Shown here: positions 3,098 to 28,033 of the stretch, piece after piece
How the letters are laid out: each line of letters opens with the position of its first letter
How positions within the stretch are numbered: the stretch's first letter is position 1
Assembly: GCA_963708235.1 (NCBI GenBank)
Contig: OY970200.1
Location: 847,757-911,756, forward strand
Reading direction: 5' to 3'
DNA length: 64,000 nucleotides
DNA from: an uncultured Acidimicrobiia bacterium
GTDB taxonomy: Bacteria > Actinomycetota > Acidimicrobiia > Spongiisociales > UBA5794
Made by a program: the position numbers and the translations under genes
Notes under the pieces: generated by a model
The model's input: only the letters and a program-made list of their open reading frames with translations
What the model was told of the DNA's origin: nothing
Databases searched by the model: none

Positions 3098-3826
3098 CTA
3101 GCCCAGGTCCAAGATGGGGCGTAGTTCTACACCGCCCCCTGGCACCACCCGGATGTGGGTGGCCATCTCGACCACCGTCTCCGGGCTGCCCCGCAACACG
3201 TAGAAAGCCCGGGCGCTGCGGGTCGCCGGCACACCACCCTCGGAGATCTGAAGGTCTCCGTTGCGAACCCGGATCGTGGCGGCCGACGAGGAGGGATGCA
3301 GCGCACCGCCGGCGACGATGAGATCGGTGGCCGCCTCGGCGAAACGCTGGTGGGCCGCCGGGTCGTCGAGCTGGTGCGTTCCACCACCGACGGCCGGGTC
3401 GTCCGCAGCGGACTCCGGCCCGTGCACCATCGCCAGAAACCGTGCCGCCCCGCGTCCACCGGCGGGCATCGCCATCGACCGATCGAACCACTGCCCGAGG
3501 GGCCGGACCTCGACGGTTCCATAGACCGCCACCGGGATCAGCCGGGCCATGTGAAGGGCGCCCTCCATCGATCCCGCCTCCAGAACGTACACACCGGCCA
3601 GGGCCTCGTCGGTCGCGGCAAACGTGCCCGCCGTCACCTCGACCTCGTCGCCCCGGTGGCGGATGCTCCGAGTCGTCGAGCGCTCCTGCAACGCCACCCC
3701 GGCCATGATCGCTCCAGCCGCCACCTCACCGAAGGCGGCGAACCCGACCATGTCGCGTTCGAAGTCCTCCGTGCCCGGCGTGGGCATCGCCGACTCGTCG
3801 GCAAACAGCAACACCAGAAACTGCAT
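3098..3826 (-). CDS. Protein with two tandem YciI-like (DGPF/Dabb-type) domains.
   Basis: From MQFLVLLFADESAMPTPGTEDFERDM, the first half ends GVYVLEAGSMEGALHMARLIPVAVYGTVEVRPL and the second half ends AFYVLRGSPETVVEMATHIRVVPGGGVELRPI. Both match the YciI-like fold signature. Start is the internal Met (M15 of ORF 3098..3868). Confidence 0.5.
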   Translation of the reverse strand: MQFLVLLFADESAMPTPGTEDFERDMVGFAAFGEVAAGAIMAGVALQERSTTRSIRHRGDEVEVTAGTFAATDEALAGVYVLEAGSMEGALHMARLIPVAVYGTVEVRPLGQWFDRSMAMPAGGRGAARFLAMVHGPESAADDPAVGGGTHQLDDPAAHQRFAEAATDLIVAGGALHPSSSAATIRVRNGDLQISEGGVPATRSARAFYVLRGSPETVVEMATHIRVVPGGGVELRPILDLG

Positions 3827-4000
3827 GGCGTTCCCTCCTCTCGGTGATGCGGGTGCCCATTGTGGCAAGTGCCCGCAGCACTCCGGCGTCTGCCGTCCGC
3901 CGCACCTACGGATCGGCGTGGTTCGACCGGGTACGCTGGCCCGACGGGCAGCGTGTCGATGGCTCGATGACCCGTGTCCAGACGGCCCGATGTCCCGACG

Positions 4001-5032
4001 ATGAGGATCCTGCTGATGCTCGACCCGGTCCCGTTCGATGAATCAGTCGCCACCGCAGCGGTTTCGACCGGACGGCTCCCGTCTCCCGATGAGGTACGCC
4101 GCCTGCTCGATGAGGCCTACGGCCGGTACCGGACCAACCGGGCCGGTGACGTCGCCGACTACATCCCGGCGCTCGCCGCCACCGACCCGGACCTGTTCGG
4201 CGCCTGCATCGTCAGCGCCCGCGGCGAGTCGTACGGGGTCGGAGACGCCGGACACGCCTTCTCGATCCAGAGCGTGTCGAAGCCGTTCGTCTTCGCCCTG
4301 GTGTGCCAGCTGCTCGGCCCCGAGGACGCCCGCCTCAAGATCGGGGTCAACAGCACCGGCTTGCCGTTCAACTCGGTGATGGCGGTGGAGCTGATCGCCG
4401 ACCGCACGGCCAATCCGATGGTCAACGCCGGCGCCATCGCCACCACCAGCCTGATCCCCGGCGCCACACCCGACGACAAGTGGGAGACCATCCGCAACGG
4501 GTTGTCGCGATTCGCCGGGCGCACCCTGGAACTCGATGGCGAGGTCTACCGGTCGGAGTCGGTGAGCAACGGTCGCAACCGGGGTATCGCCAGGCTGCTC
4601 GCCAGTTACGACCGGCTCTACGCCGATCCCGACGAGGCCACCGACCTGTACACACGGCAGTGTTCGCTCTCGGTGACCGCCACCGATCTGGCGGTGATGG
4701 GGGCCACCCTCGCCGACGGAGGGGTCAACCCGATCACCGGGGAACGGATCATCGACCCGGTCCACTGCAAGCGGGTGCTCGCCGTGCTGGCCACCGCCGG
4801 GCTCTACGAGCGCTCCGGCGAGTGGCTGTATGAGATCGGGCTCCCGGGCAAGAGCGGGGTGAGCGGCGGGATGGTGACCGTGTCGCCAGGGAAGGGAGGC
4901 CTCGGGGTCTTCTCCCCACCACTCGATGGCGCCGGCAACAGTGTCCGTGGTCAGTATCTCACCAAATATCTGTCCGACCGGCTCGGTCTCAACATCTTTG
5001 CCTCGCGACCGGTGGCGCCCGACGCCGGGTGA
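4001..5032 (+). CDS. glsA: Glutaminase (GlsA, serine-dependent beta-lactamase fold).
   Basis: VADYIPALA...FSIQSVSKPFVFAL...GLPFNSV...NPMVNAGAI...GLPGKSGVSGGMV...SPPLDGAGNSV, which is collinear with E. coli GlsA. Alternative GTG start at 3974. Confidence 0.85.
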   Translation: MRILLMLDPVPFDESVATAAVSTGRLPSPDEVRRLLDEAYGRYRTNRAGDVADYIPALAATDPDLFGACIVSARGESYGVGDAGHAFSIQSVSKPFVFALVCQLLGPEDARLKIGVNSTGLPFNSVMAVELIADRTANPMVNAGAIATTSLIPGATPDDKWETIRNGLSRFAGRTLELDGEVYRSESVSNGRNRGIARLLASYDRLYADPDEATDLYTRQCSLSVTATDLAVMGATLADGGVNPITGERIIDPVHCKRVLAVLATAGLYERSGEWLYEIGLPGKSGVSGGMVTVSPGKGGLGVFSPPLDGAGNSVRGQYLTKYLSDRLGLNIFASRPVAPDAG

Positions 5033-5187
5033 CGCTTCCGATCCCGGGGGCGACCCGTCGCCGAACTTCGGCACCGCCGCCGCAGCGGGTAGCGTGCGGG
5101 CCGCATCTCCCGAAGAGAGGGAAGCCCCTGCCCGGCGGTCGTCGGAGCATGGGGATTCGGCTGGATGAGAGGGACCGGTGGGCGGAC

Positions 5188-5676
5188 ATGTCAGAGATCG
5201 CAAGGTTGCTTGCCGCCAACGAGGGCTATGCCGCCGCCCGTGCCAATGTCACCGATGCCCGGCCCAGCCGGAGTCTGGCGGTCGTCACGTGCATGGATCC
5301 CCGTATCGATGTGTTCGCCGTCCTCGGGCTGCACCTCGGCGAAGCCCATGTCATCCGCAACGGGGGCGGCAGGGTCACCGACGACGTGCTGCGCAGCATG
5401 GCCCTGTCGACGCACGTGCTCGGTGTCGAGACCGTGGTGGTGATGCAGCACACCAAGTGCGGTCTGGTCGGCGTCACCGACGAGGAGTTGCGTGACATCA
5501 CCGGCTCCGACCTCGGGTTTCTTCCCATCGACGACCACGCCGCCGCGCTCCGCGAGGACATCGAGGTGCTCGCCACCAAGAGTTATCTCTCCCCGTTGCA
5601 GGTGATCGCCGGCTTCGTCTACGACGTCGAGAGCGGCGAAATCCACGACGTGGTCCGGTGGGAACGCACGCCGTAG
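5188..5676 (+). CDS. Beta-class carbonic anhydrase.
   Basis: The CMDPRID...HLGEAHVIRNGGG...VVVMQHTKCG Cys/His/Cys zinc-ligand pattern is typical of beta-carbonic anhydrases. Start is the internal Met (MSEIARLL). Confidence 0.8.
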   Translation: MSEIARLLAANEGYAAARANVTDARPSRSLAVVTCMDPRIDVFAVLGLHLGEAHVIRNGGGRVTDDVLRSMALSTHVLGVETVVVMQHTKCGLVGVTDEELRDITGSDLGFLPIDDHAAALREDIEVLATKSYLSPLQVIAGFVYDVESGEIHDVVRWERTP

Positions 5677-5722
5677 ACGAAGCCGGCGCAGGCGCCGGTC
5701 GCTGGCTCCTGGAGGTTGCAGC

Positions 5723-7387
5723 TCAGCCGTTGACCGGGTACCCGGGTCCCAGCGGGATGCCGAGCATGAACCATGCGGCGAACAGCACCAACCACACCAG
5801 CAGGATGCCCACCGCATAGGGGAGCATCAGGGCCACCACCGTCCCGAGACCCGCCTTCTTCTGATATCGCTGCGCCACCACCACGATGAACGGCAGATAC
5901 ACCATCAGCGGCGTCAACACGTTGGTGGGGGAGTCGCCCACCCGGTAGGCGGCGAGGACCGTCTGCGGGGCCACGTCGAGCCGGGTGAAGATCGGGATGA
6001 ACACCGGGGCGAAGATCGCCCACTTGGGGACGACGCCGGGAAGGATGAAGTTGAGCACCACGATCACCACGATCATCGCCAGCAGCAGCGGGAGTGCTCC
6101 CACGCTGGCGCTCTCCAGCACACCCGCCATCTTCACCGCCGCCACCCGGGGCATGTTGGTGTAGTTGAAGTAGGCAATGAACTGGCTGATCATCAGCAAC
6201 ATAAAGATGAGTCCGGACAAACCGGAGAACGTCTTGGTGACGGCGTTGATCACGCCCTCGCTGCCCTGGAGCGTCTTGGCCCCCCGCCCGTAGAAGATGC
6301 CGCAGACGAGGAAGATCAGCGAGATCAGGAAGATCAGGCTGTTCATGAACGGGGTCGGTCCGACGAGGGCACCGGTCACCGGGTCCCGCAGCGGTGCCCC
6401 GGGTGGGAGGGAGAGCAGGGCGATCAGCCCGCCGATGCCGAGGAGACCGTAGAAGGCGTATTTCAGCCCGCGGGCCTCGGCGTCCGGGTCGACCGCCTCC
6501 GCCGCCAGCGCATCCGGGTCGCCTTCGGTCGGATCGTAGGGTCCGAGGCGGGGCTCGACGATGCGTTGGGTGATGAACATCGCCACGCCGGCCAGTACCA
6601 GGGTCGACACCACCGCAAAGTAGTAGTTGGCGGTGACGGTGATCGGCTCGCCGCCGGTCAACCCGATCGCCTCGTTGGTGATCTCGGTGAGCATGCTGTC
6701 TACGGGTGTGATCAGCATGTTGACGCCGAAGACGGCGCCCACCCCGGCGAACGCCGCCGCCATCCCGGCCAACGGATGGCGACCCAACGTCATGAAGGCA
6801 GCCGCTCCCAACGGGATCAGGATCAGATACCCGGCGTCGGACGCCACGCTGGACAGCACCCCCACCAGGATCAGGATGAAGGCGATGAGTTGACGGGGCG
6901 CCACCGCCACCAGCTTGCGGATCAACGCCGCCATCATCCCGGCCTGTTCGGCGACTCCGACTCCGGCCATCGCCACCAGCGTCACCGCCACCACGGCGAA
7001 CCCGGCGAAGTTGCTGACGAAGGAGGTGAAGAAAAACCTGATCCCGTCGGCGTCGAGCAGACTCCGGATCGGGATGAACTCTTCCTTGACGATGTAGTCG
7101 GGAATCTGGGCGGGTTCGTTGGTGAAGACGTCGTAGGGGACGATCGACCCGCCGAGCGCATTGTTGAGGTCCCGGAGCTGCTGGATCGGGACCGGTTCGA
7201 CTATTTCCTCGGTGACGCTGATGTTCATCATCGCCAGGATCTGGGAGAGCACCATCACGATGGCGATCAGGTACACGAACATCATCACCGGGTGGGGTAC
7301 CCGGTTGCCGACTTTCTCGATACCGTCGAGGAGCTTCTCGGTGAAGCCCCGTTTTACCGGCTGTCCTTCGGCGGTCGTGGTCGACAT
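5723..7387 (-). CDS. abgT: AbgT family transporter (p-aminobenzoyl-glutamate/peptide uptake).
   Basis: 554-aa polytopic membrane protein. The N-terminal MSTTTAEGQPVKRGFTEKLLDGIEKVGNRVPHPVMMF and overall topology are typical of AbgT/MtrF. It lies immediately downstream of the aminopeptidase gene. Confidence 0.8.
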   Translation of the reverse strand: MSTTTAEGQPVKRGFTEKLLDGIEKVGNRVPHPVMMFVYLIAIVMVLSQILAMMNISVTEEIVEPVPIQQLRDLNNALGGSIVPYDVFTNEPAQIPDYIVKEEFIPIRSLLDADGIRFFFTSFVSNFAGFAVVAVTLVAMAGVGVAEQAGMMAALIRKLVAVAPRQLIAFILILVGVLSSVASDAGYLILIPLGAAAFMTLGRHPLAGMAAAFAGVGAVFGVNMLITPVDSMLTEITNEAIGLTGGEPITVTANYYFAVVSTLVLAGVAMFITQRIVEPRLGPYDPTEGDPDALAAEAVDPDAEARGLKYAFYGLLGIGGLIALLSLPPGAPLRDPVTGALVGPTPFMNSLIFLISLIFLVCGIFYGRGAKTLQGSEGVINAVTKTFSGLSGLIFMLLMISQFIAYFNYTNMPRVAAVKMAGVLESASVGALPLLLAMIVVIVVLNFILPGVVPKWAIFAPVFIPIFTRLDVAPQTVLAAYRVGDSPTNVLTPLMVYLPFIVVVAQRYQKKAGLGTVVALMLPYAVGILLVWLVLFAAWFMLGIPLGPGYPVNG

Positions 7388-14042: not shown

Positions 14043-14229
14043 TGATGCTCCTGGAATGGGCGGTCTTCGGGTCGTCTCGGGGACTCTTTGGCGGTGGCGC
14101 AGGGCGTACGCCGAATGTAAGGACCAGGTTCTGCCCGGTCCGTTCTCCGGTGGCGCCCTCAGGAGAGGTGACCTCGCCGGGACGGGGAACTCATCGTCAC
14201 GTGAATCGAACTACTCGGTGTCACCATAA

Positions 14230-14251
14230 GACTTCAAGAACACTTGAAGTC
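14230..14251. promoter_or_regulatory. Perfect 9-bp inverted repeat GACTTCAAG-aaca-CTTGAAGTC. Candidate operator in the divergent promoter region.
   Basis: Lies in a locally AT-richer intergenic stretch between the FAD oxidase (minus, start 14042) and the epimerase operon (plus, start 14292). Confidence 0.4.
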
Positions 14252-14291
14252 AAGCGCTCGGTTCCGACGCAGGTGAGGGCGGCGGGAACCC

Positions 14292-15320
14292 GTGGGACGA
14301 CGGATGGAACCCCACAGGTCGGAGGACGAGCCGGTGCCCTCTCGCACGCTCTATCCTCCCCGCAGCCAGGATGGAGGAGTCGAGATTCGCACGCTGGTGA
14401 CCGGAGCCGCCGGGTTTGTCGGTTCGGCTGTCGCATTGAGGCTGGTGGAAGAGGGCTTCGATGTGCACGGCCTGGTTCGCACCGCCACGTCGCCAGGGCG
14501 CCTGGGCGGCGGCGGTGGCGGAGTGTCGCTCCACACCGGCGATTTGACCGAACCCGGAGACCTTGCCGACGCCATCCGCCGGATCGACCCGCAACTGGTG
14601 GTTCACGCCGCCGCCCATGGCGGGCATCCCGTCGGCGCCGAAGGACGCCGTGTGGCTTGGCACGATACGGTCACCGGCACCCTCAACCTCGTCGAGGCGC
14701 TCCGTGATCGACCTCCGCAACGCTTCGTCCATCTCGGCAGTCCGCTCGAGTACCGCCCCGGCGGGAACTCGACCGATGATGTGACTGGTCGAACCGCGGG
14801 AGTGAATGGCCGCTGCGGTCCCACCACCTTCCGAGGTGCGATGAAGGCGGCGTCGACGCTTCTCGTCCGCCAATGGTCCGCAGAGATCGGTGCGCCGTGC
14901 GTCGTGCTCCGCCCCTTCTCGGTCTACGGGCCGCATCAGCAGCCGCAGCGGGTCATCCCGGTCCTCCTCGGTGCGCTCCGCTCCGGGAGCCCTTTCGCTG
15001 TCGCCGGTGGAGATACGGGGCGAGACTTCGTCTACATCGATGATGTGGTCGATGCCGTGGTAGCCGTCATCCGTACGAGGGCGGCCGACGGCGGCGAGTT
15101 CAACGTGGGTTGCGGCGAGATGACGACCATCACCCGCTTGATCGCCACCGCCGAAGAGGTGACCGGCCGGCGGGCCGTCCTCGCCGGCGATGTCCATCCG
15201 GGCACGGTCGCCGACGGTGCGGTGTGGAGCGCCGACCTCGGCGACACCACCAGGGTGCTCGGATGGGCGCCGCGGACCTCGCTCGCCGAGGGGCTCCGCA
15301 TCACCTGGAGCTCGGGATGA
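14292..15320 (+). CDS. NAD-dependent epimerase/dehydratase (SDR) family protein.
   Basis: The Rossmann motif TLVTGAAGFVGSAV follows a ~28-aa N-terminal extension, so the start is uncertain (alternative 14304). Stop overlaps the next start (ATGA). Confidence 0.75.
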   Translation: MGRRMEPHRSEDEPVPSRTLYPPRSQDGGVEIRTLVTGAAGFVGSAVALRLVEEGFDVHGLVRTATSPGRLGGGGGGVSLHTGDLTEPGDLADAIRRIDPQLVVHAAAHGGHPVGAEGRRVAWHDTVTGTLNLVEALRDRPPQRFVHLGSPLEYRPGGNSTDDVTGRTAGVNGRCGPTTFRGAMKAASTLLVRQWSAEIGAPCVVLRPFSVYGPHQQPQRVIPVLLGALRSGSPFAVAGGDTGRDFVYIDDVVDAVVAVIRTRAADGGEFNVGCGEMTTITRLIATAEEVTGRRAVLAGDVHPGTVADGAVWSADLGDTTRVLGWAPRTSLAEGLRITWSSG

Positions 15321-16024
15321 CGGCGGTCGACCCGGATCGGATGGCGCGCCTCGAAGTCATGGAAGGCGCCCACTTCTGGTCGGTGGGTCGGGACCATCTC
15401 ACCCGCCTGCTGCTCACTCGCTACGACATGTCCCCGCCGTACCTCGATGCCGGTGCCGGGACCGCACGGTTCGCCCGTACCCTCGCTGCGAAACACCGAT
15501 CGGTCTACTGGTTCGACATCGGGGCCGTGGATCCCCCCGGGTTCCGCGCATCGATCACCTCGATTCCACTCGCCCCCGGATCCGTCGGCACGGTATTTGC
15601 TCGCGACGTCCTCGAACATGTCGATGACGTGGCCGCGCTCGCCGAGTGCCACCGGGTGCTGCGACCCGGCGGTGTGCTGCTGGTCACCGTTCCCGGCTGG
15701 CCGTCGCTCTGGGGTCCGAGGGACGTGGTGTCGGGTCACCTGCGCCGCTACCGCCGGCGAGATCTCAGGCGTGTCGTCGAGGCCGCCGGATTCGTCGTCG
15801 AGGAGATGCGCGGGTATCAGTTCCTGCTCCTGCCCCTGGTCGTCATCTCGCGACTGCTGACACAGCGCTCCGGGCCCGAGGCTCTGCACCGTGAGGAACG
15901 AATCGGTGGTCGCACCAATGCGCTCCTCACCGCGATCAACCACACCGAGGCCGGCGCTGCACGGTGGAAGGCGGTGCGGCCTCCCACCGGCTCCACGCTC
16001 GTCATGATCGCACGACGCCCGTGA
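15317..16024 (+). CDS. Class I SAM-dependent methyltransferase.
   Basis: The LDAGAGTARF glycine-rich SAM motif, ARDVLEHVDD and LRPGGVLLV. Translationally coupled to both flanking genes. Confidence 0.75.
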   Translation: MTAVDPDRMARLEVMEGAHFWSVGRDHLTRLLLTRYDMSPPYLDAGAGTARFARTLAAKHRSVYWFDIGAVDPPGFRASITSIPLAPGSVGTVFARDVLEHVDDVAALAECHRVLRPGGVLLVTVPGWPSLWGPRDVVSGHLRRYRRRDLRRVVEAAGFVVEEMRGYQFLLLPLVVISRLLTQRSGPEALHREERIGGRTNALLTAINHTEAGAARWKAVRPPTGSTLVMIARRP

Positions 16025-16842
16025 CGATCTCCCCCTACCTCTTCTCGACCGATCTGCGGCTGGTGCAGGCACTTGCCGGCGCCGACGCCGCTCCCGATCG
16101 GCGGGTTGGGGCCGTGGTCGTCGATTGGGAACGGCGGGGCAAGGCGGAACGCCAGCAGCATGCCCTTGCTCAGATCGGAACCGACACCCAGATCGGAGTC
16201 GACACCGTCGACGATCTCGGAGCGGTGGCGGAGATATCCGCAGTTCCCGTGGTGTGCCGGCTCAACGCGTGGGGCCCCGGCACACCCGGCGAGATGGAGC
16301 GGGCGATCGCTGGCGGTGCTGTCACGGTGTTGTTGCCGATGGTGCGCACCGCCGCTGAGGTGGCCGCCGCTCTCGACGTGGCCGCCGGTCGCATCGGTAT
16401 CGGCATCCTGGTCGAGACCCGGGCGGCCGTCTCGATCGCCGACGAGTTGTCCGAGCTGCCGCTGGCGATGGTCTACGTCGGCTTAATGGACCTGGCCATC
16501 GATTCGGGATCGTCGACGATCTTCGCCCCGCTCGTCAACGGCATCGTCGAGAGGTTGCGGGCCTCGTTCTCGGTCCCGTTCGGCGTCGGGGGGCTCACGG
16601 TGCCCCTGGGTGGTCATCCGATCCCGGCCCCGATCCTCGCCGGTGAGCTGATCCGGCTGGGCTGTGATTTTTCGTTTCTGCGGCGGGCGTTCATCCGTCA
16701 TGCGGTGGACGATCCGAGCGCAGCCCTCGTTGATGTCCTCGCCATGCTCGACGCTCTGGAGCGACGAACGCCGAGCGAGACGGCCGCTGACCGCCGCAGC
16801 TTCCTGGCGGCGGTCAGGGTCGCTGCAGGGGTGGCCGGGTGA
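16021..16842 (+). CDS. HpcH/HpaI aldolase / citrate-lyase beta (CitE)-like TIM-barrel protein.
   Basis: VVVDWE...VVCRLNAWG...LLPMVRTAAEV...LVETRAAVSIADEL...VYVGLMDLAIDSG matches the HpcH/CitE motif order. GTG start overlaps the upstream stop. Confidence 0.5.
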   Translation: MTISPYLFSTDLRLVQALAGADAAPDRRVGAVVVDWERRGKAERQQHALAQIGTDTQIGVDTVDDLGAVAEISAVPVVCRLNAWGPGTPGEMERAIAGGAVTVLLPMVRTAAEVAAALDVAAGRIGIGILVETRAAVSIADELSELPLAMVYVGLMDLAIDSGSSTIFAPLVNGIVERLRASFSVPFGVGGLTVPLGGHPIPAPILAGELIRLGCDFSFLRRAFIRHAVDDPSAALVDVLAMLDALERRTPSETAADRRSFLAAVRVAAGVAG

Positions 16843-17630
16843 CCATCAAGCTCTCCGTGGTGAGTCCGCTGTACCGGTGTCGTCGCGAGGTTCCTGAGTT
16901 CCTGGAACGCCTCCGCCTCGTTCTCGAGAGCTGTGCCGATACCGGCGAGTGGGCTCCCGGGGAATGGGAGGTGGTGTTGGTCGACGATCATTGCCCGGAG
17001 TCGAGTGGTTCGGCCGCGGTCGCGGCGTGGCCGACCTGCTTGTCCGGTCTCCGCGTGATCCGGCTCGACCGCAACGCCGGCCAGCAGGCCGCCCTGTGGA
17101 TGGGCCTCAGGTCGGTGTCGGGTGAGACCGTCGTCGTCCTCGATGCGGACCTGCAGGACCGGCCCGAAGACCTGGTCGTGCTGCTCGGCGGACTCCGACC
17201 TGGGGTGGAGGTGGTCTCCGCCGGTCGCAGCGGCCACTACACCACGGCAGGCCGCCGATTCACCGCCTGGGTGTTCCGCCACATGCGGACCGTACTCACC
17301 CGAGGGCGCCTGCCGTCGGACGCCGGGCTGTTCATGGCGGCCCGTGGGGTCGTCGTCGGTCGGATGCTCGCCCTCGACGATCCGGGTGTTCACCTGCTCA
17401 CCGGTCTGTCGAGGGTGGGAGCGTCCGTCGACACGATCCCCGTCGAACGTCGGCGTCGGGCAAGCGGTGCTTCCGCCTACTCGGGGTGGCGACGGCTGGC
17501 GCTCGGCCTGGCCGCCCTGCTCGACTGCACACCCGCCTACCCGTTCACCAGATGGGTCCGGCGGCGAACGTGGCGGGAACCCCGGCCTGTCACCCTCACG
17601 CCACAGATCACCCCGGAACCCATGCGATGA
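16839..17630 (+). CDS. Family 2 glycosyltransferase (DPM1-like polyprenyl-phosphate sugar synthase type).
   Basis: VVSPLYRC...VVLVDDHCPES...VLDADLQD is the GT2 DxD core. Confidence 0.75.
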   Translation: MTIKLSVVSPLYRCRREVPEFLERLRLVLESCADTGEWAPGEWEVVLVDDHCPESSGSAAVAAWPTCLSGLRVIRLDRNAGQQAALWMGLRSVSGETVVVLDADLQDRPEDLVVLLGGLRPGVEVVSAGRSGHYTTAGRRFTAWVFRHMRTVLTRGRLPSDAGLFMAARGVVVGRMLALDDPGVHLLTGLSRVGASVDTIPVERRRRASGASAYSGWRRLALGLAALLDCTPAYPFTRWVRRRTWREPRPVTLTPQITPEPMR

Positions 17631-17658
17631 TCCGACCCCCGGCAAGGAACGAGAACAA

Positions 17659-18363
17659 GTGAGCGACGAACACAACGAGTATCAACGCCGCTACTACACC
17701 GAGCGGGACTCACCCCGGATCGGGCTCGACCGCTCGGGTACTCCGTATGTCCGTCGCCATGTCACCGAAGTGCTCGCCGCACTCGACCGGCCCACCGGTT
17801 CGTCCATCCTCGATGTCGGATGTGGGCTCGGTAAGTACACGGTGGGTCTGATGGAGGCCGGGTATGTGGTGGAGGGCATCGACCTCACCCCTGCATTGAT
17901 CGAGAGCCTGCACGGCCAGATCCCGGAATTGCCGCTCCATGTCGGTGACGTCGCGGTCCCTCCCGAAGCGTTGCACGGGCGGTTTTCCGGCGTCGTCGGC
18001 TTCTTCTTCCTGCATCACGTCGACGACCTCGCCGCCGTCTTCGCCGGGGTCCGCCGGTGTCTCACACCGGGCGGACGTGCCGTGTTCATCGAGCCCAACC
18101 CGTTGTTCCTCGGGTTCTATGCCCAGATCGCCATCACCCCTGGCATGACCTGGCGAGGGGAACGAGGCATTCTCTCGATGCGTCCCAAGGTTCTTGCGGA
18201 GGCGGCGCGGCGAGCCGGCTTCACGCGATGCCGGTCCACTGCCTTCGGCGCCTTTCCCCCGGTGCTCGCCAACCGCACCCGGGGTGCCCGGATCGAGCAG
18301 ATCATCGAGCACCTTCCCGGTTGGGACCGGGTCGGGGCCTTCCGGCTGATCACGGTGGAATGA
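17659..18363 (+). CDS. Class I SAM-dependent methyltransferase.
   Basis: ILDVGCGLGKYT, plus FFFLHHVDD and LTPGGRAVFIEP. GTG start with an AAGGAACGAG ribosome-binding site. Confidence 0.75.
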   Translation: MSDEHNEYQRRYYTERDSPRIGLDRSGTPYVRRHVTEVLAALDRPTGSSILDVGCGLGKYTVGLMEAGYVVEGIDLTPALIESLHGQIPELPLHVGDVAVPPEALHGRFSGVVGFFFLHHVDDLAAVFAGVRRCLTPGGRAVFIEPNPLFLGFYAQIAITPGMTWRGERGILSMRPKVLAEAARRAGFTRCRSTAFGAFPPVLANRTRGARIEQIIEHLPGWDRVGAFRLITVE

Positions 18364-19790
18364 GTTCGTCGCTGACGGCGATGGTCGTCATCGCCGTGAC
18401 GACCATCGCGGTGACCCGCTGGGTTCCCGTCTCGACCGACGAGGCGTGGTTTCTCCAGGTGGTCCGGCGCACCACCAACGGTGACCGCCTCTACCGGGAT
18501 GTGTTCTTCGGGGCGGCTCCCCTGGCGGTCTGGATCGCCGCCGTGGCGGTGCGGTTCACCCGGCCTCAGGTGATCGTGGTGCGGGCCATCGGTCTTGCCT
18601 ACCACCTGGCGATACTGGCCGCTGCAGCTGCGCTGTTCGCCGTCGAAGACGTGCCTGCGCTCCCCACGGTGGCGACGCTCATCGGTGTCGCAGGCCTCGG
18701 CGGCCACCATGCCGCACTGCACAATCACTACGGTCATCTGACCAACATCGGTCTGATCGGGGCGGCAGCAGCGATCCTCGCCGGACGGCCGGTCCTTGCC
18801 GGAGTGGCGCTGGCAGTCGCCGTTGCCGGGCGCTACCCGGTCGGAATCCTGGGTGCGGTGGTGCTCGTTCCGCTGAGTGCGTGGGCACACGGGACAGGTT
18901 TCGCCGTCGATGTCGCCGCGGGGCTGATCGCGGTCGGCGCCCTGGTGGTCGCCGTCGGTTGGGGGGAATGGCGTGCGTTCTACCGGACCGCCGTCGCCAA
19001 CAAGCCCACCTATCTGGCGGTCGCCGGGATCTCGCTGTTGGCCGGGCTGTCGGCGGTGCGCACCCGCGCCGATTCGGTCGCACGGCGGATCGAGGCGGTC
19101 CCGGTACTCGTCGGTTATGCGCTGTTGGTTCCGTGTGGCGGAATCGCAGCGATCGCGGCGGTGTCCGGGTTCTGGTCGGACCGTCCTGACCGGGTGATCG
19201 CCGCCGCACTGGTGGTGTGCGGTATGGCCGTGGTCTATCCGCGGGCGGATCGGGCGCATGTGGTGGCAGCGATGCCCCTCATGGTGGTGGGGGCCGGGCT
19301 GGCGTGTGCCGAACTCTCCGGCCTGGTCTGGTGGACGGCGGCGGCGGGCGCCGGTGCGGTCGCCATGGCCGGCATCGGGGGACGTATGCTGGTCACCAGG
19401 GCAGGGATCTTCCGTCGGGATCTCCCTCGATTGCGCGGACTGCCGGCACCACGGCTGCGCGGGGTGTGGGCCGACGATACCGAGGAAGTGCGTCGCATCG
19501 CCGGGTCAAGGGTCTTCGTGTTGCGAGCCGACGCCGCCTACTTCTACCTGTGCGGAGGTCTGGAGAACCCCACGCCGTACGACTACCCCTTCGCCTCCAC
19601 GTTCGGATCGACCGGTCAGGCGAAGGTGATCGACGCCATTCGGCGGGGTCAAGTGACGTGGGTGTGCGGGTCGATGGTTGCCGGAAGTGCCATGGTTCCG
19701 GAGCAGCTCGCCGGGTTCGTTGCCAAGGAGATGGATCTCGTGGCGTCGACTCCGGTCGGGCCGTTGTCGGGGTTCGGTACCGGGGAGTGA
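18360..19790 (+). CDS. Polytopic membrane protein with a C-terminal soluble domain. Putative GT-C type (lipid-linked donor) glycosyltransferase.
   Basis: 476 aa, about 11 TM helices, then a ~110-aa soluble tail (YFYLCGGLENPTPYDY). Overlaps the upstream stop by 4 nt. Function inferred from architecture and operon context only. Confidence 0.4.
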   Translation: MSSSLTAMVVIAVTTIAVTRWVPVSTDEAWFLQVVRRTTNGDRLYRDVFFGAAPLAVWIAAVAVRFTRPQVIVVRAIGLAYHLAILAAAAALFAVEDVPALPTVATLIGVAGLGGHHAALHNHYGHLTNIGLIGAAAAILAGRPVLAGVALAVAVAGRYPVGILGAVVLVPLSAWAHGTGFAVDVAAGLIAVGALVVAVGWGEWRAFYRTAVANKPTYLAVAGISLLAGLSAVRTRADSVARRIEAVPVLVGYALLVPCGGIAAIAAVSGFWSDRPDRVIAAALVVCGMAVVYPRADRAHVVAAMPLMVVGAGLACAELSGLVWWTAAAGAGAVAMAGIGGRMLVTRAGIFRRDLPRLRGLPAPRLRGVWADDTEEVRRIAGSRVFVLRADAAYFYLCGGLENPTPYDYPFASTFGSTGQAKVIDAIRRGQVTWVCGSMVAGSAMVPEQLAGFVAKEMDLVASTPVGPLSGFGTGE

Positions 19791-20022
19791 GTCGCCCCCG
19801 CAGCGCCCCCGGCGGATCGAGCGTGGTGGGCCGGCGTTACCCGGGGACACGAAACGACCTGGCGCGACGGCGGTGAGTCTGGTCCCACCCAGACCGCGTG
19901 CTTGTTTCCTGACCCATCCCCGCTTCTCCCGGTAGTCCGGTCCGGCCGTCGCATGCCGTGTATCTCGCGGCGGTACTGCGACTCTCGTAGCTCCGAGATC
20001 ATCACATGACTGGGAGTGCCTC

Positions 20023-21121: not shown

Positions 21122-22453
21122 ATGGCACATTCCACTGGCAAACCGACTGAGATCGTGATCCTCGGCGGTGGATATACCGCTGTATGGGGCTACCGATCCA
21201 TCGTTCGGCGGCTCCGCCACGAACTGGCCACCGGCACGGTTCGCATCACGGTCATCTCCGCAAGCCGGCACCATGCCTTCCACGGCTGGACCGGTGAGGT
21301 GCTCAACGGACTGGTGCGCTACGACCGCACCCGCACCCCGCTCGCAAAGCTGATGAAACGGGCTCACATCATCAACGGGTGGGTCGAGGGCATCGATCTG
21401 GACGCCCGGGCGGTGCGCTACGCCGCGGCGGACGGTGCGGCCACGGTGCGCTTCGACCACCTGCTCGTCGGTGTGGGGTCGCACGACGCCTCCGACCGCA
21501 TCCCCGGACTCGCCGAGCACGGGTGGTCGGTCAAGACGGACGACGGACTGCTCGACACCCGTGATCACCTTGCCTCGGTGCTGGAACGGGCCACATCGAC
21601 CACCGATCCCGGCGAGCGGCGGCGACTTCTCTCGTTCGTGGTCGCTGGTGGGGGCTTCGCCGGTGCGGAGATGGCGGCGGCCATCGCCGAGTACCTGCAG
21701 CGGCAGGTCCGACACCACCCGGTGTTGGAGACGTGCCCGGCGCAGGTGACGTTGATCCACGGCGGCCCGGCCCTGCTCCCCGAGATGCGCCCCCGATTCG
21801 ACCGATTCGCCGACTATGCCACCCGCCAACTCGCCGACCATGGCGTCGCTGTCCGGTTGGGTGTCCGGCTCGAGCGGGTGACCGCTGCAGGTGCGACCCT
21901 CGACAACGGAGCGGTTGTCCCGGCGGCGACGGTGCTGTCGACCATCGGGCAGACCCAGGTGCCGCTGGCAGGGACCGAACGGCTCACCAGGGACGCCACC
22001 GGCAGGATCGTCGGCGACACCTACCTGCGGACCTCGCACCCGAACGTGTGGGCAGGCGGCGATGCGGCGGCGGTACCTCACGTCCTGTCGGGTGAGGCCT
22101 GTCCGCCGAATGCCCTGTGGGCGATCAAGCACGGGGTGCGGGTCGGCGACAACATCGCCCGCACCATCACCGGGCGCCGGTTGCGCCGTTTCCGCTTTCT
22201 CGGGTTGGGGCAGGCCGCCAGTTTCGGTGTGGGGAAAGGCGCCGGAGAGCTCTACGGGATTCAGCTCACCGGCTGGTTGGGCTGGCTGGTGCGGTGGGGG
22301 TTCTTCCACTGGTTCATGCCATCGCGAGGCGCCGCCATCGCCACCATCAGCGAGTGGCTGGCCATCCCCCTGCGCGGACGCTACTTCGACGACGAGATCG
22401 AGGTGGAGCCGGCCGATGGCCGGGCCGGGTCGGTCCGTATCGTCGCTGCCTGA
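21122..22453 (+). CDS. Type II NADH dehydrogenase-like FAD/NAD(P)-binding pyridine nucleotide-disulfide oxidoreductase.
   Basis: IVILGGGYTAV (FAD GxGxxG)...VVAGGGFAGAEMAA (NAD GxGxxG)...VWAGGDAA, with a C-terminal amphipathic membrane-anchor region typical of NDH-2. Confidence 0.75.
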   Translation: MAHSTGKPTEIVILGGGYTAVWGYRSIVRRLRHELATGTVRITVISASRHHAFHGWTGEVLNGLVRYDRTRTPLAKLMKRAHIINGWVEGIDLDARAVRYAAADGAATVRFDHLLVGVGSHDASDRIPGLAEHGWSVKTDDGLLDTRDHLASVLERATSTTDPGERRRLLSFVVAGGGFAGAEMAAAIAEYLQRQVRHHPVLETCPAQVTLIHGGPALLPEMRPRFDRFADYATRQLADHGVAVRLGVRLERVTAAGATLDNGAVVPAATVLSTIGQTQVPLAGTERLTRDATGRIVGDTYLRTSHPNVWAGGDAAAVPHVLSGEACPPNALWAIKHGVRVGDNIARTITGRRLRRFRFLGLGQAASFGVGKGAGELYGIQLTGWLGWLVRWGFFHWFMPSRGAAIATISEWLAIPLRGRYFDDEIEVEPADGRAGSVRIVAA

Positions 22454-22477
22454 CCCCGCCATGACCGGCCGGAGGAT

Positions 22478-22648
22478 TCATTTCGGGAAGGGTTTACCGG
22501 GTGGACCGTCATCGCCGACCTTGCGCATCTTGATCTGTCGGATCAGGACGGCCGCCCGCTGGTAGTCGGCGAGTGCGGCCTCGCTGTGCCCGCGGCTGGT
22601 GGCGGCAACGCCACCGATGATCTCGATCGGTGCGGAGCGGTCGTTCAT
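22478..22648 (-). CDS. Small hypothetical ORF (56 aa) immediately 3' of the SIR2 gene and the poly-G tract.
   Basis: MNDRSAPIEIIGGVAATSRGHSEAALADYQRAAVLIRQIKMRKVGDDGPPGKPFPK. No ribosome-binding-site spacer (GGAACGAGG directly abuts the ATG) and no recognisable family. May be spurious. Confidence 0.2.
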   Translation of the reverse strand: MNDRSAPIEIIGGVAATSRGHSEAALADYQRAAVLIRQIKMRKVGDDGPPGKPFPK

Positions 22649-22667
22649 CCTCGTTCCATCCTATCTC

Positions 22668-22692
22668 GGGGGGGGGGGGGGGGGGGGGGGGG
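22668..22692. repeat. 25-nt homopolymeric G tract (poly-C on the minus strand).
   Basis: Uninterrupted G25 read directly from the sequence. Intergenic, 19 nt 3' of the SIR2 gene stop and ~215 nt 3' of the convergent NDH-2 gene. Confidence 0.9.
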
Positions 22693-22711
22693 TCGGCGAT
22701 CCGCAGCCGGG

Positions 22712-24268
22712 TCATCGCCCGCCGTCGTCCAGCAGGAACAGCTCGGCCAGGGCGTGTTCGATCGAGGGCAGCGACACCTGGCGGAGTGCCGACAGCCGCT
22801 GGGCGAGGACACTGCGGGGCGCCGGTTCGGTCGAGGCAAGGGTGACCGACCCCACCGGGAGCCGGCCCCAGACGTCGCTCTCCACATACAGCGGGATGCC
22901 GACGACGTGGTTCCAACGGGACAGCGTCTGATGGGTGGTGGAGCGCGAAACCAGGCTGCCGGAGCAGAACGCCTGGACGGCGACGAAGTCGCTCTTCCAA
23001 CCGACCGGGACCGGAGCAAGGGTGCTCGGATCTCGCCACACCCGATCCGACGAAGCCCAGTTGGTGAGGCTCTCCGACCGTGGGTCGTAGATCCACAACG
23101 CCACCCCGAGACGCTCGTCGTTGCCGATCCCGTGGCCGTCGCCCGACAGATCTTTGCGCACCCCGTCCGCCAGCGCCGCCATGACGGCGTGGAGGGCATC
23201 CTGCACCCGTTCGAATTCCCCACGATCGGGGACGAACACGGTCTCGGAGATCCGGCGGCGCCACTCGTCCAGCCGGTCCGGAAACGGCCGGTAGGCGACG
23301 CCGGCGGCCCCGGTGCGGGTGTAGTGCACGATCTCGTGGAGGAGCTGGGCGCTCTGTGCGTAGAAGTCGGCCTGGACCGGTTCGACGCCGACCGCCTTCC
23401 ATCGAGACGTCGCGGTCAGCTCCCGGGCGGCGGCGACCGCCGGCGGAGTCGAGTCGTACAGCGACGACGACTGCTGGCGGACGAATACCGCCACGTGCAT
23501 GGTGGTGCCGTCGGCCCGGTACAGGTAGCGCAGCAGGTTGGGGTCGGTGAGGCTCATCCCGACGAACAGACAGGTCGATGCGGAGAGCCGGTCTGCGAAG
23601 AACTGCTCCTGCCAGGTCTCCGGCTGCTGCATCCGGTGGTAGTCCTGCTCGGAGAGCACCACGGTGCCGCGCTCGCGGCCCCGAGGGGTGATGACCCCGT
23701 GGAGGTGGAGCACCGATCTCCTCACGTCGCCGATCGAGTCCGGATGCACCATCCACGTTGCGGATCCACGCTTCAACCCGAGGGCCGCCGTCAGGGCCGA
23801 CTCGAGGACCAGGTCGTAGTTGGTCGTGGTGAGGCGGCTGCCGCTGTCCTCGGGTTTGGTGAGCAGCAGACTGGTCGCCGCCCGGGCGGTGGCCCCTGGC
23901 AGCGGGGTGAGTTGCTGTTCGTAGAGCGCCGTGTGCAGTGCCGGCACGAACCCGTCCCGGAGGGCTGCCTTGACCACGGCGGCGGCCCCGGTCAGCGAGT
24001 CGCCCCGGATCGTCCAATCGGCGAACTGGTCGCAATCGTCGCCGGCGAGTCCATGGTGGCGAGCTACCTGGACCAGCAACCGCCGGACCAGGGTGTCCCA
24101 GTTGGGGAACCCGACTTCGATCGAGCTGCCGGCTCCCACCACGAGCGTCATCTCCCGTGCCTCGGCCAGGCGTGCGATGAGCTGCTGCACCCCGTCGGTG
24201 CGAAAGAAGTCGCACAGGCCGCGTCTCCCCGTCTCGGTTCCGGTGTCCGGTCGTCCAGTCTCGGTCAT
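22712..24268 (-). CDS. Stand-alone ThsA-like SIR2 (SIR2_2/DHS-like NAD-binding) protein with a C-terminal GAF-like sensor domain. Candidate NAD+-depleting defense effector.
   Basis: 518 aa from MTETGRPD (M263 of ORF 22712..25054). The motif order VVGAGSSIEVGFPNW...TTNYDLVLE...VLHLHGVI...LSEQDYHRM...LFVGMSLTDPNLLRYL matches B. cereus ThsA (FAGAGLSMSVGYVSW...TTNYDRLIE...KMHGDV...FLFVGFSFTDPNL). The C-terminal ~230 aa (LHAVMAALADGV...GVALWIYDPRSESL...HVVGIPLYVESDVWGRLPVGSVTLAST...IEHALAELFLL) has a GAF-like alpha/beta pattern rather than a SLOG pattern. Confidence 0.75.
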   Translation of the reverse strand: MTETGRPDTGTETGRRGLCDFFRTDGVQQLIARLAEAREMTLVVGAGSSIEVGFPNWDTLVRRLLVQVARHHGLAGDDCDQFADWTIRGDSLTGAAAVVKAALRDGFVPALHTALYEQQLTPLPGATARAATSLLLTKPEDSGSRLTTTNYDLVLESALTAALGLKRGSATWMVHPDSIGDVRRSVLHLHGVITPRGRERGTVVLSEQDYHRMQQPETWQEQFFADRLSASTCLFVGMSLTDPNLLRYLYRADGTTMHVAVFVRQQSSSLYDSTPPAVAAARELTATSRWKAVGVEPVQADFYAQSAQLLHEIVHYTRTGAAGVAYRPFPDRLDEWRRRISETVFVPDRGEFERVQDALHAVMAALADGVRKDLSGDGHGIGNDERLGVALWIYDPRSESLTNWASSDRVWRDPSTLAPVPVGWKSDFVAVQAFCSGSLVSRSTTHQTLSRWNHVVGIPLYVESDVWGRLPVGSVTLASTEPAPRSVLAQRLSALRQVSLPSIEHALAELFLLDDGGR

Positions 24269-26349: not shown

Positions 26350-28033
26350 GTGAAACCACCAGTACTCAAGGTGCACCAGCGATGGTCTTCGATGAGGGCA
26401 GCCGGCCGGGACGGGAAGGGACGGCGCTGGATGATCACGCCGCTGGTTCCCTTGCTGCTGGCGCTCGTCGTGGCCTTCGGCCCGGTCGCCGTCGTCGCCC
26501 AGGCGCCACCCGACACCACATGGGGTGATCCGGTCCTCGAAGCGCGGGTCACCTCGCAGATCGACATCGATCGCGCCGTCGATCACCTCCGGCACTTCAC
26601 CGATGTGATCGGTCCCCGGCTCGGCGGCACCCCGGCGGAGAATGCGGCCGCCCAGTACCTGAAGGCCGAGCCTCGAGAGTTATGGCTACGAGGTCACCCT
26701 CCAAGGATTCCCCGCCTCCAACAAGCTGGTGGGAACGATCGCCATCCCCGGCACCCGGGCCCTGCAGAGCGGCATCGCCACCAACGGTCGGATCACGGCG
26801 GGGACCTTCGTCCCCGGGGAGCTGGTCTGGGCCGGCACCGGGATGACCGTCGCCGAGTTCCCGGCGGACACCGCCGGGAAGATCGTCCTGATGGAGAACG
26901 CAACGACAAACGCCAACCGCAACATCCAGGTGGGCAATGCCGCCGACCTCGGCGCCGCCGGCGTCATCCTGTGGCGCACCCAGGCCACCCCCTTCGACCC
27001 GGCGCTGACCACGGTCCGGACGATTCCGGTGCTCGGTGTCGGTGGCGGGCAGGGGACCATCCTCAAGGATCGGATCGATGCCGGTCCGGTGACCGTCTCG
27101 GTCGACACCACGTCGTACACCGGGCTCACCGCCTACAACGTCCACGCCTCGAAGGCACCCACCGTGGGTGACGCCGAGAACGCACCCATCGTCATGGTCA
27201 GCGGTCACTACGACTCGGTGCGAGGTGCTCCCGGTGCCAATGACGACGGGTCGGGCACCATGCTCACCCTTGAACTGGCAAGGGTGTTCAAGGATCTCAA
27301 GTCGGACAAGGAACTGAGGTTCTCGTTCTGGGGTGCCGAGGAACAGGGTCTGATCGGGTCCAACTACTACGTCAACAATGCCCCCCAGGCAGAACTCGAC
27401 CGGTTCGTCGGGGTGTGGCAGAACGACATGGTGGCGACAAGCTGGGAACCGGCCAACCGCTACAACCTGCTCACCGTTCATGGTCTCCACAACACGGTGA
27501 CCCAGGCGGTTGCGGCCGTGGCGCCCCGGCTCGGTCACGAGGCGTTCATCCTCGGCCCCGTCGTACGCGGCGGGAGCGATCATGTGCCCTTCCACAACCG
27601 GGGGATCGCCGCCGCCAATCACAGCTGGCGACCGGCGAGCGGTCCCGGCAACCTGGAACCGGCGTACCACACACCTGAGGACACCATCGAGAACAACCTC
27701 AGCCCGGAGAGGTGGCGCGTCAGCATGGAGCTGATCGGTTCTGCGATCTACACCCAGGCGCAGACCGCCGAGGACGGATTCGACCTGCTCAGCGATGCGG
27801 TCGCCGATCTCGAACTCGACGCCTCACAGTGGAAGCTGGTCAGGTTCCTCGATCGGATCGAGCGGGAAATGGCCGTCGACGACACCGAAGAGGCGTGCCG
27901 TGCCACCGCCGCATACGGCGAAGAGGTGGACCGGCTCGCCGGGCTGCGTCCCGAGCGGGGGCCGCTGGACCCCGAGGTCGCCTACGACCTCCGTGCGTTC
28001 ACGCAGAACCTGTCGCTGACGCTCGGCTGCTGA
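26350..28033 (+). CDS. Secreted M28-family aminopeptidase with a PA domain. Apparent +1 frameshift near nt 26671.
   Basis: Signal peptide MITPLVPLLLALVVAFGPVAVVAQA. Continues in the other frame (ORF 26729..28033) as SYGYEVTLQGF...VGTIAIPGT...GHYDSVRGAPGANDDGSGT...FSFWGAEEQGLIGSNYYV. Removing the extra C in GCCGAG-C-CTCGAG restores AAQYLKAELESYGYEV. Confidence 0.7.

Follow-up and report, generated by a model that had tools for sequence, protein, structure and literature searches.

A run of 25 consecutive G residues on the forward strand of the 64-kb stretch of DNA analysed here (hereafter the window) raises two questions, namely whether so long a homopolymer exists in the organism and, if it does, whether it affects the genes on either side of it. 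Direct reading and a run-length count place the uninterrupted G25 at 22668-22692 on the + strand, within the context ...CCTATCTC-G25-TCGGCGATCC.... The GC content of the window is 67.8%, and a census of its G-runs returned 283 of G4, 60 of G5, 18 of G6 and one of G7, followed by the single G25; that G7 and one C7 are the next-longest homopolymers. Since each extra base reduces the number of G-runs about 4-fold, the chance expectation for a 25-mer is well below 1e-9 and the tract is beyond chance. A first-pass annotation of this DNA had described an intergenic and highly unusual 25-nt poly-G, which agrees with the census, and its distances also hold: the tract lies 19 nt past the stop codon of a SIR2 gene (22712-22714, minus strand) and 214 nt (about 215 in the annotation) past the stop of the convergent NDH-2 gene (22453). 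No direct or inverted repeats of the kind left by an insertion were found to flank the tract, and a mobile-element end was rejected on that ground. Coordinates of the features are collected in Table 1.

Table 1 Features at and around the homopolymer tract, in window coordinates
Feature	Position	Strand	Evidence
NDH-2-type oxidoreductase, 443 aa (P0070), convergent	21122..22453	+	homologues at 65-66% identity
Small partner gene, 56 aa (P0074), MNDRSAPIEIIGGVAATSRGHSEAALADYQRAAVLIRQIKMRKVGDDGPPGKPFPK	22478..22648	-	homologous ORFs, alignment, BLASTP, GC3
TAGGAT, -10-like hexamer (TANNNT)	22658..22663	-	position conserved in 13/19 family loci
Homopolymer G25 (+), which is C25 on the SIR2/small-gene sense strand	22668..22692	-	direct reading, run-length count
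SIR2-stop-to-tract spacer, 19 nt, CCCGGCTGCGGATCGCCGA on the minus strand	22693..22711	-	direct reading
SIR2_2-domain protein, 518 aa (P0001), defence-type NADase-like fold	22712..24268	-	Pfam, alignment, AF2/Foldseek

The annotation had placed the tract simply between SIR2 and NDH-2. It is indeed intergenic, but the annotation missed the 56-aa minus-strand ORF (22648..22478) that sits between NDH-2 and the tract. This ORF (P0074) is annotated as a gene in the source record and has a GC3 of 0.79; its stop lies 24 nt from the convergent NDH-2 stop and its ATG 19 nt from the tract, so that two same-strand genes flank the tract at 19 nt each. Along the minus strand, the SIR2 TGA is followed by the 19-nt spacer, C25, GAGA, TAGGAT, GGAACGAGG (9 nt) and ATG, with the tract spanning about -44 to -20 counted from the small-gene ATG. 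The spacer between SIR2 and the small gene thus measures 63 nt with the tract and 38 nt without it, and 34-59 nt in homologues. Recoding between SIR2 and the small ORF was rejected, as an in-frame TGA separates the two.

A small same-strand ORF is present downstream of SIR2 in all 19 unique family loci, which comprise the window and loci among L060-L093. Behind the closest SIR2 homologues (L060-L068) it is 48-53 aa long and starts 34-59 nt past the SIR2 stop, and the motif I-[IV]-G-G-[VI]-x(5)-G-H-S...Y...A...K is common to the small ORFs of the window and of these closest loci. The alignment of four small ORFs (A5) has 11 invariant columns, and BLASTP aligns 31 aa of P0074 with the ORF of L063 (45% identity, E 3e-6); a word-based search retrieved no protein other than the 56-aa query. 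SIR2 homologues that are more distant (25-40% identical, from 25 metagenome loci) likewise precede a small ORF on the same strand, 46-98 aa in length, and these ORFs comprise at least two sequence types other than that of P0074, giving at least three types overall. Based on these sequence comparisons, the small gene is a genuine conserved partner of the SIR2 family, with which it forms a two-gene cassette. Because it is conserved behind the SIR2 genes of the family, the tract lies inside a genuine cassette, in a region that is intercistronic and that would also belong to the putative promoter of the small gene. The first-pass annotation, one of whose explanations was an effect on the 3'-UTR stability of the defence gene, therefore captured half of the picture but not the intercistronic and promoter-proximal position of the tract.

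The larger gene of the cassette encodes P0001, which has a likely start at the ATG at 24268 and matches Pfam SIR2_2 (PF13289, E 8e-17). The protein is intact in a full-length alignment with 32 homologues (A1) and retains all family-invariant residues, including T148/N150/D152 (TTNYD) and H188/H190 (HLHG). Its AlphaFold (AF2) model has a pLDDT of 90.8, and the best Foldseek matches of the ~320 N-terminal residues are to ThsA, KomC and DSR2 (E 2e-10 to 1e-8, prob 1.0), with which P0001 shares the fold of this part and the family-invariant Asn/His; the C-terminal alpha/beta domain (330-518) lies outside these matches. Sequence searches of PADLOC, NCBIfam and PDB returned only weak matches to ThsA, Dsr1, LmuA and KomC, those in PADLOC and NCBIfam being sub-threshold (NCBIfam Dsr1, 37.5 bits vs a cut-off of 1400). 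The cassette differs from Thoeris, Kongming and DSR1/DSR2. Unlike Thoeris, it has neither a SLOG domain in P0001 nor an adjacent TIR-domain ThsB, and unlike Kongming it lacks a KomAB partner. A HerA partner is likewise missing, and the sole conserved partner is the ORF of 46-98 aa. With 518 aa, P0001 is half the size of DSR1/DSR2, which reach ~1000-1300 aa with a large C-terminal sensor, and it falls outside that group as well. The SIR2_2 two-gene cassette is unnamed in the libraries searched (Pfam, PADLOC, NCBIfam).

P0001 is identical to one database entry, which lies on one contig of 3.74 Mb, and its 68 homologues are at most 53% identical; exact-protein look-ups (SIR2, small ORF, P0001) found no independent assembly of the same strain in the collection. 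Neighbours of SIR2 homologues include type I R-M genes, integrases, Abi genes and IS elements. No counterpart of the SIR2 gene was found in phages, and its homologues on plasmids reach only 25-28% identity. In the window, the neighbours of SIR2 are the small ORF, NDH-2 and an ABM-domain gene, and a search of genome contigs with NDH-2 returned nothing above 65-66% identity (Acidimicrobiaceae/Nitriliruptoria). In a more distant relative (L097; ENA ERZ27256897 k141_1092616, 3909-6232), whose NDH-2 is 71% identical, the interval from NDH-2 to DUF5996 is occupied by two cupin genes and a sigma-70/SnoaL gene, which take the place of the SIR2 cassette and the ABM-domain gene. Since other genes occupy the same slot in this relative, the SIR2 cassette is accessory and located in a variable slot.

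Between the tract and the small gene lies TAGGAT, a hexamer of the -10-like form TANNNT, separated by 4 nt from the tract and by 9 nt from the ATG. A TANNNT hexamer stands 6-9 nt ahead of the small-ORF start in 13 of the 19 unique family loci (window included), against a background of 1.3% at random positions in the same loci, which corresponds to a binomial P of about 1e-20 for loci that are not all independent. In five further loci the hexamer stands 20-35 nt ahead of the start, and in most of these a purine-rich Shine-Dalgarno-like stretch comes after it; L084 has no TANNNT hexamer near its small-ORF start. In many distant family loci a CCATCCG box also precedes the hexamer by 7-13 nt, and the three closest loci have in common a CTGTC[AG]CA box at 10-11 nt upstream. 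Neither box is present as a clear copy in the window, where GGATCGCC, within the 19-nt spacer just upstream of the tract, bears a weak resemblance to the CCATCCG box. A generic sigma-70 scan of 22300-22900 returned no promoter site. A -10 element alone suffices for many actinobacterial promoters, and according to mycobacterial transcription-start maps such -10 geometry drives leaderless or very short-leader mRNAs in actinobacteria. TAGGAT may be a working promoter of this kind, or alternatively could act as a Shine-Dalgarno-like AGGA on a bicistronic message.

The hexamer recurs across the family and the tract does not. At the tract position, the other 18 family loci have no G/C run longer than 6 nt, and because all of them are without a long run, the tract is not a conserved feature of the SIR2/small-gene system. 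Runs of C3-C6 are found at the equivalent place in L060, L066, L084 and L078, and are plausible seeds for expansion.

A homopolymer confined to one assembly might be an artefact, and the annotation had named a sequencing or assembly error among its explanations. In this case, the real genome would have no run or a short one, and the G25 would have been produced by poly-G reads, polishing or a homopolymer miscall. The window run resembles two-colour Illumina poly-G artefacts in being a pure G-run of at least 25 nt. However, poly-G read tails lead to terminal runs or to junctions between a G-run and a C-run: among IMG/VR viral contigs, a run of at least 25 G or C lay within 150 nt of the end of the retrieved DNA in 96 of 120 loci, and about half of the 24 internal runs were G-run/C-run junctions. 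In contrast, the window run is internal, single and cleanly flanked, with no abutting C-run, and is situated between genes that are adjacent in independent homologous loci; of a contig end, a join of unrelated sequences and an abutting C-run, none was found at the tract. As the sequences on both sides of the tract belong together as a conserved gene pair at native spacing, a chimeric join through poly-G is excluded. In an assembly closed to a 3.74 Mb contig, correct spanning reads would be expected to outweigh a spurious path, and long-read miscalls would resize existing runs rather than create them.

The artefact explanation does gain from the length of the run, which exceeds the longest well-documented bacterial promoter tract found (C19, PMC1891110), and from doubtful long G/C runs in other public assemblies, such as a G23 near a contig end (L008) and a cluster of G/C runs (L048). 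It gains further from two +1 frameshifts relative to a close relative, which fall within about 4 kb of the tract in two of seven genes and fit residual indel errors; the full-length domain matches of twenty other ORFs in the window speak against it. Overall, a long run of about 15 nt or more is likely to be present in the organism, possibly over- or under-called in length, and the tract is unlikely to be an artefact. An Illumina tail or join, as suggested by the annotation, is unlikely given the native gene pair and the clean internal run, but a length miscall is possible.

The close metagenomic relative (ABM-domain protein about 90%, NDH-2 86% identical) bears on the reliability of the length, although its contigs end short of the tract: L094 and L095 inside the SIR2 5' part, and L096 at 54 nt past the NDH-2 stop. 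Comparison with L094/L095 verified two of the single-base frameshifts that the first-pass annotation had reported. The ABM-Y2318_C gene of the window has an extra base at about 24739 (GAGCTCCCG vs GAGCT-GCG in the relative) and is split into ORFs of 131 aa and 159 aa, whereas the relative encodes one protein of 278 aa, P0073. A second +1 base, at about 26672-26700 (GAGCCTCGAG vs GAG-CTGGAG in the relative), lies in the next-but-one gene, downstream of DUF5996, and splits it into ORFs 26350-27171 and 26663-28033. Two of the seven comparable genes are thus frameshifted, both within about 4 kb of the tract, and these changes suggest that the genes are pseudogenes or that a long-read consensus retains indel errors. 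Because of the two +1 frameshifts near the tract, its exact length of 25 is unreliable, and conceivably even the tract itself may be wrong; that the cell carries a run of roughly this length is a presumption. Pfam analysis of 20 other long ORFs of the window returned full-length matches with intact domains, but this test was insensitive to frameshifts, because the comparison with the relative then revealed two real ones. Both frameshift sites adjoin a SacI- or XhoI-like palindrome (GAGCTC, CTCGAG), which could reflect basecalling errors at methylation motifs or be a coincidence.

Two other observations concern L096. Its terminal 54 nt (3459-3512) end in a direct repeat (ATCGGGACCGGTGGCGC twice) and give no convincing alignment with the 3' end of the window small gene, so that the two strains may differ in what follows NDH-2. 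L096 also lacks a 5.9-kb block of the window (14054-19960) with an epimerase, two methyltransferases, an HpcH-like aldolase, a GT2 glycosyltransferase and an unknown ORF; the sequences matching about 14054 and about 19960 are contiguous on it.

For a tract that is real, one explanation put forward in the annotation was a G-quadruplex (G4) acting as a bidirectional transcription barrier. The G25, or the rigid duplex that it forms, would in this case insulate the convergent transcription units from each other and the small gene from SIR2, with the + strand G25 being template for SIR2/small-gene transcripts and non-template for NDH-2 read-through. A G4 is formally possible, since the tract holds 1001 three-tetrad registers and the quadruplex-allowed (gquad) fold of ViennaRNA, computed with RNA parameters only, puts it in a G4. 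Nevertheless, this capacity is unspecific: at least four G-runs of at least 3 nt within a short span are trivially present in any long G-run, and neither a G4 motif nor a G/C-rich run is conserved at the homologous position in the other 18 family loci. The absence of an intrinsic-terminator-like site (GC-rich hairpin and U-tract) between the convergent genes or after SIR2, within 22300-22900, leaves room for another means of insulation, but the barrier is not itself accompanied by RNA structure, as the sense (minus)-strand RNA around the tract shows no significant fold (z = 0.47). It would moreover be misplaced, since 214 nt past the NDH-2 stop it lies beyond the whole antisense small gene and would give no protection from antisense read-through. 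Based on this evidence we regard a barrier as very improbable. A terminator at the tract was rejected because no hairpin was found, and Rfam and tRNA scans of the window returned nothing.

As the best of the explanations considered, we tentatively propose that the tract is real and slippage-prone, and that it tunes or switches the small gene. Under this proposal, the sense strand of the accessory cassette would carry a genuine, long stretch of poly(dC).poly(dG), filling the spacer and the -35 region of the putative promoter of the small gene, from which a short-leader or leaderless transcript is predicted. The tract would also be intercistronic in any transcript reading through from SIR2. Like other Actinomycetota, the lineage of the window probably lacks MutS/MutL. 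A G/C homopolymer of 25 nt would be expected to undergo frequent replication slippage, more so if mismatch repair by MutS/MutL is indeed missing, and each change in length would alter the distance between upstream sequence and the -10 element. The altered promoter geometry could then change the amount of small protein relative to SIR2, resulting in stochastic, heritable and reversible tuning or an ON/OFF switch, as described for the C-stretch of Bordetella fim promoters.

Alternatively, the tract could be real but functionless, a short C-run that was expanded by slippage under weak indel repair and persists by drift, with the small gene expressed through the -10 element or by read-through only and insensitive to tract length. 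The long tract is unique to the window among the 19 family loci, and the short C-runs at the equivalent place in four other loci are consistent with such an origin, as is the lack of an associated structure or motif at the tract. The upstream sequence may also be irrelevant to expression, since many actinobacterial promoters need only a -10 element. However, a pure 25-mer must either have expanded very recently or be kept pure by selection, and neutrality for expression is not easily reconciled with a position 4 nt from the conserved promoter-like element of a probable toxin-partner gene. We consider a neutral tract somewhat unlikely.

The proposal that tract length tunes or switches the small gene draws on known contingency loci. 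The poly-G/C tracts of Neisseria porA/opc, the poly-G tracts of Treponema pallidum tpr and of a Bifidobacterium breve pilus locus, and the C-tract of M. tuberculosis glpK lie in promoters or 5' regions and are 7-17 nt long with documented length variation; the Bifidobacterium and Mycobacterium cases indicate that the slippage mechanism operates in Actinomycetota. The window shares with these loci a G/C homopolymer at a place where slippage may change expression, and the G25/C25 is above the instability threshold (about 7-9 nt) that characterises promoter-type contingency loci; the window tract differs in its length of 25 nt and in being a single observation. The closest parallel is provided by the fim promoters of Bordetella, in which a C-stretch of up to C19 between the activator site and the -10 box controls transcription through its length (PMC1891110). 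The C19 is that of B. bronchiseptica fim3, in a genome of about 67% GC (PMC1891110). Like fim2, fim3 and fimX, the window has a long sense-strand poly-C immediately upstream of a -10(-like) box in a high-GC genome. However, its tract is longer (25 nt) and precedes a small SIR2-partner gene rather than that of a fimbrial subunit, and an activator site and an effect of length on expression, established for Bordetella, are hypothetical for the window. A homopolymer tract in a promoter is a known kind of element, which here, if real, is unusually long and found in an unusual lineage and gene pair.

Known examples of simple-sequence phase variation concern restriction-modification systems and the surface antigens of pathogens. 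If the tract is real and variable, a defence cassette of the SIR2 NADase type, from a deep-branching, high-GC environmental lineage, would be added to them, and the tract would offer a natural way into the role of the small partner (e.g. inhibitor, sensor or regulator). The most far-reaching reading, phase-variable abortive infection with the C25 as a contingency switch in a previously undescribed defence or toxin-like cassette of a SIR2 NADase and a ~50-aa partner that has a leaderless-type promoter of its own, strikes us as quite improbable. Should such a switch be true, slippage would shift the partner-to-effector ratio, clonal cells would have the NADase armed, restrained or silenced, and the tract would be the longest promoter homopolymer yet described, in a high-GC actinobacterium. 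Were the tract an artefact, it would be an example of how homopolymer artefacts may be told from real tracts through the conservation of flanking genes. Independent of the tract, the SIR2 family is consistently found with a small downstream gene that has its own promoter-like element.

Among the other loci retrieved, two contain long G/C runs. At 120-142 of L008 (a Micropruina MAG), a G23 follows two copies of GGGGCGGGAGGGACGA at 120 nt from the contig end, and at 8667-8835 of L048 (Streptomyces sp. NPDC018610) G runs and C runs of 9-19 nt alternate in a 170-nt intergenic cluster. Runs of the L048 type were absent from the other Streptomyces loci fetched, and those in L048 and L008 either arose in assembly or are natural G/C-run elements of Actinomycetota. 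Within the SIR2 gene itself, the N-terminus in the close relative (L094/L095) has extra copies of a 15-nt repeat encoding RLETG units that are missing from the window gene. The insert comprises 48 bases just after the SIR2 start codon (A2 columns 342-389; window equivalent about 24225-24260), and represents a second slippage-type length difference within the SIR2 cassette.
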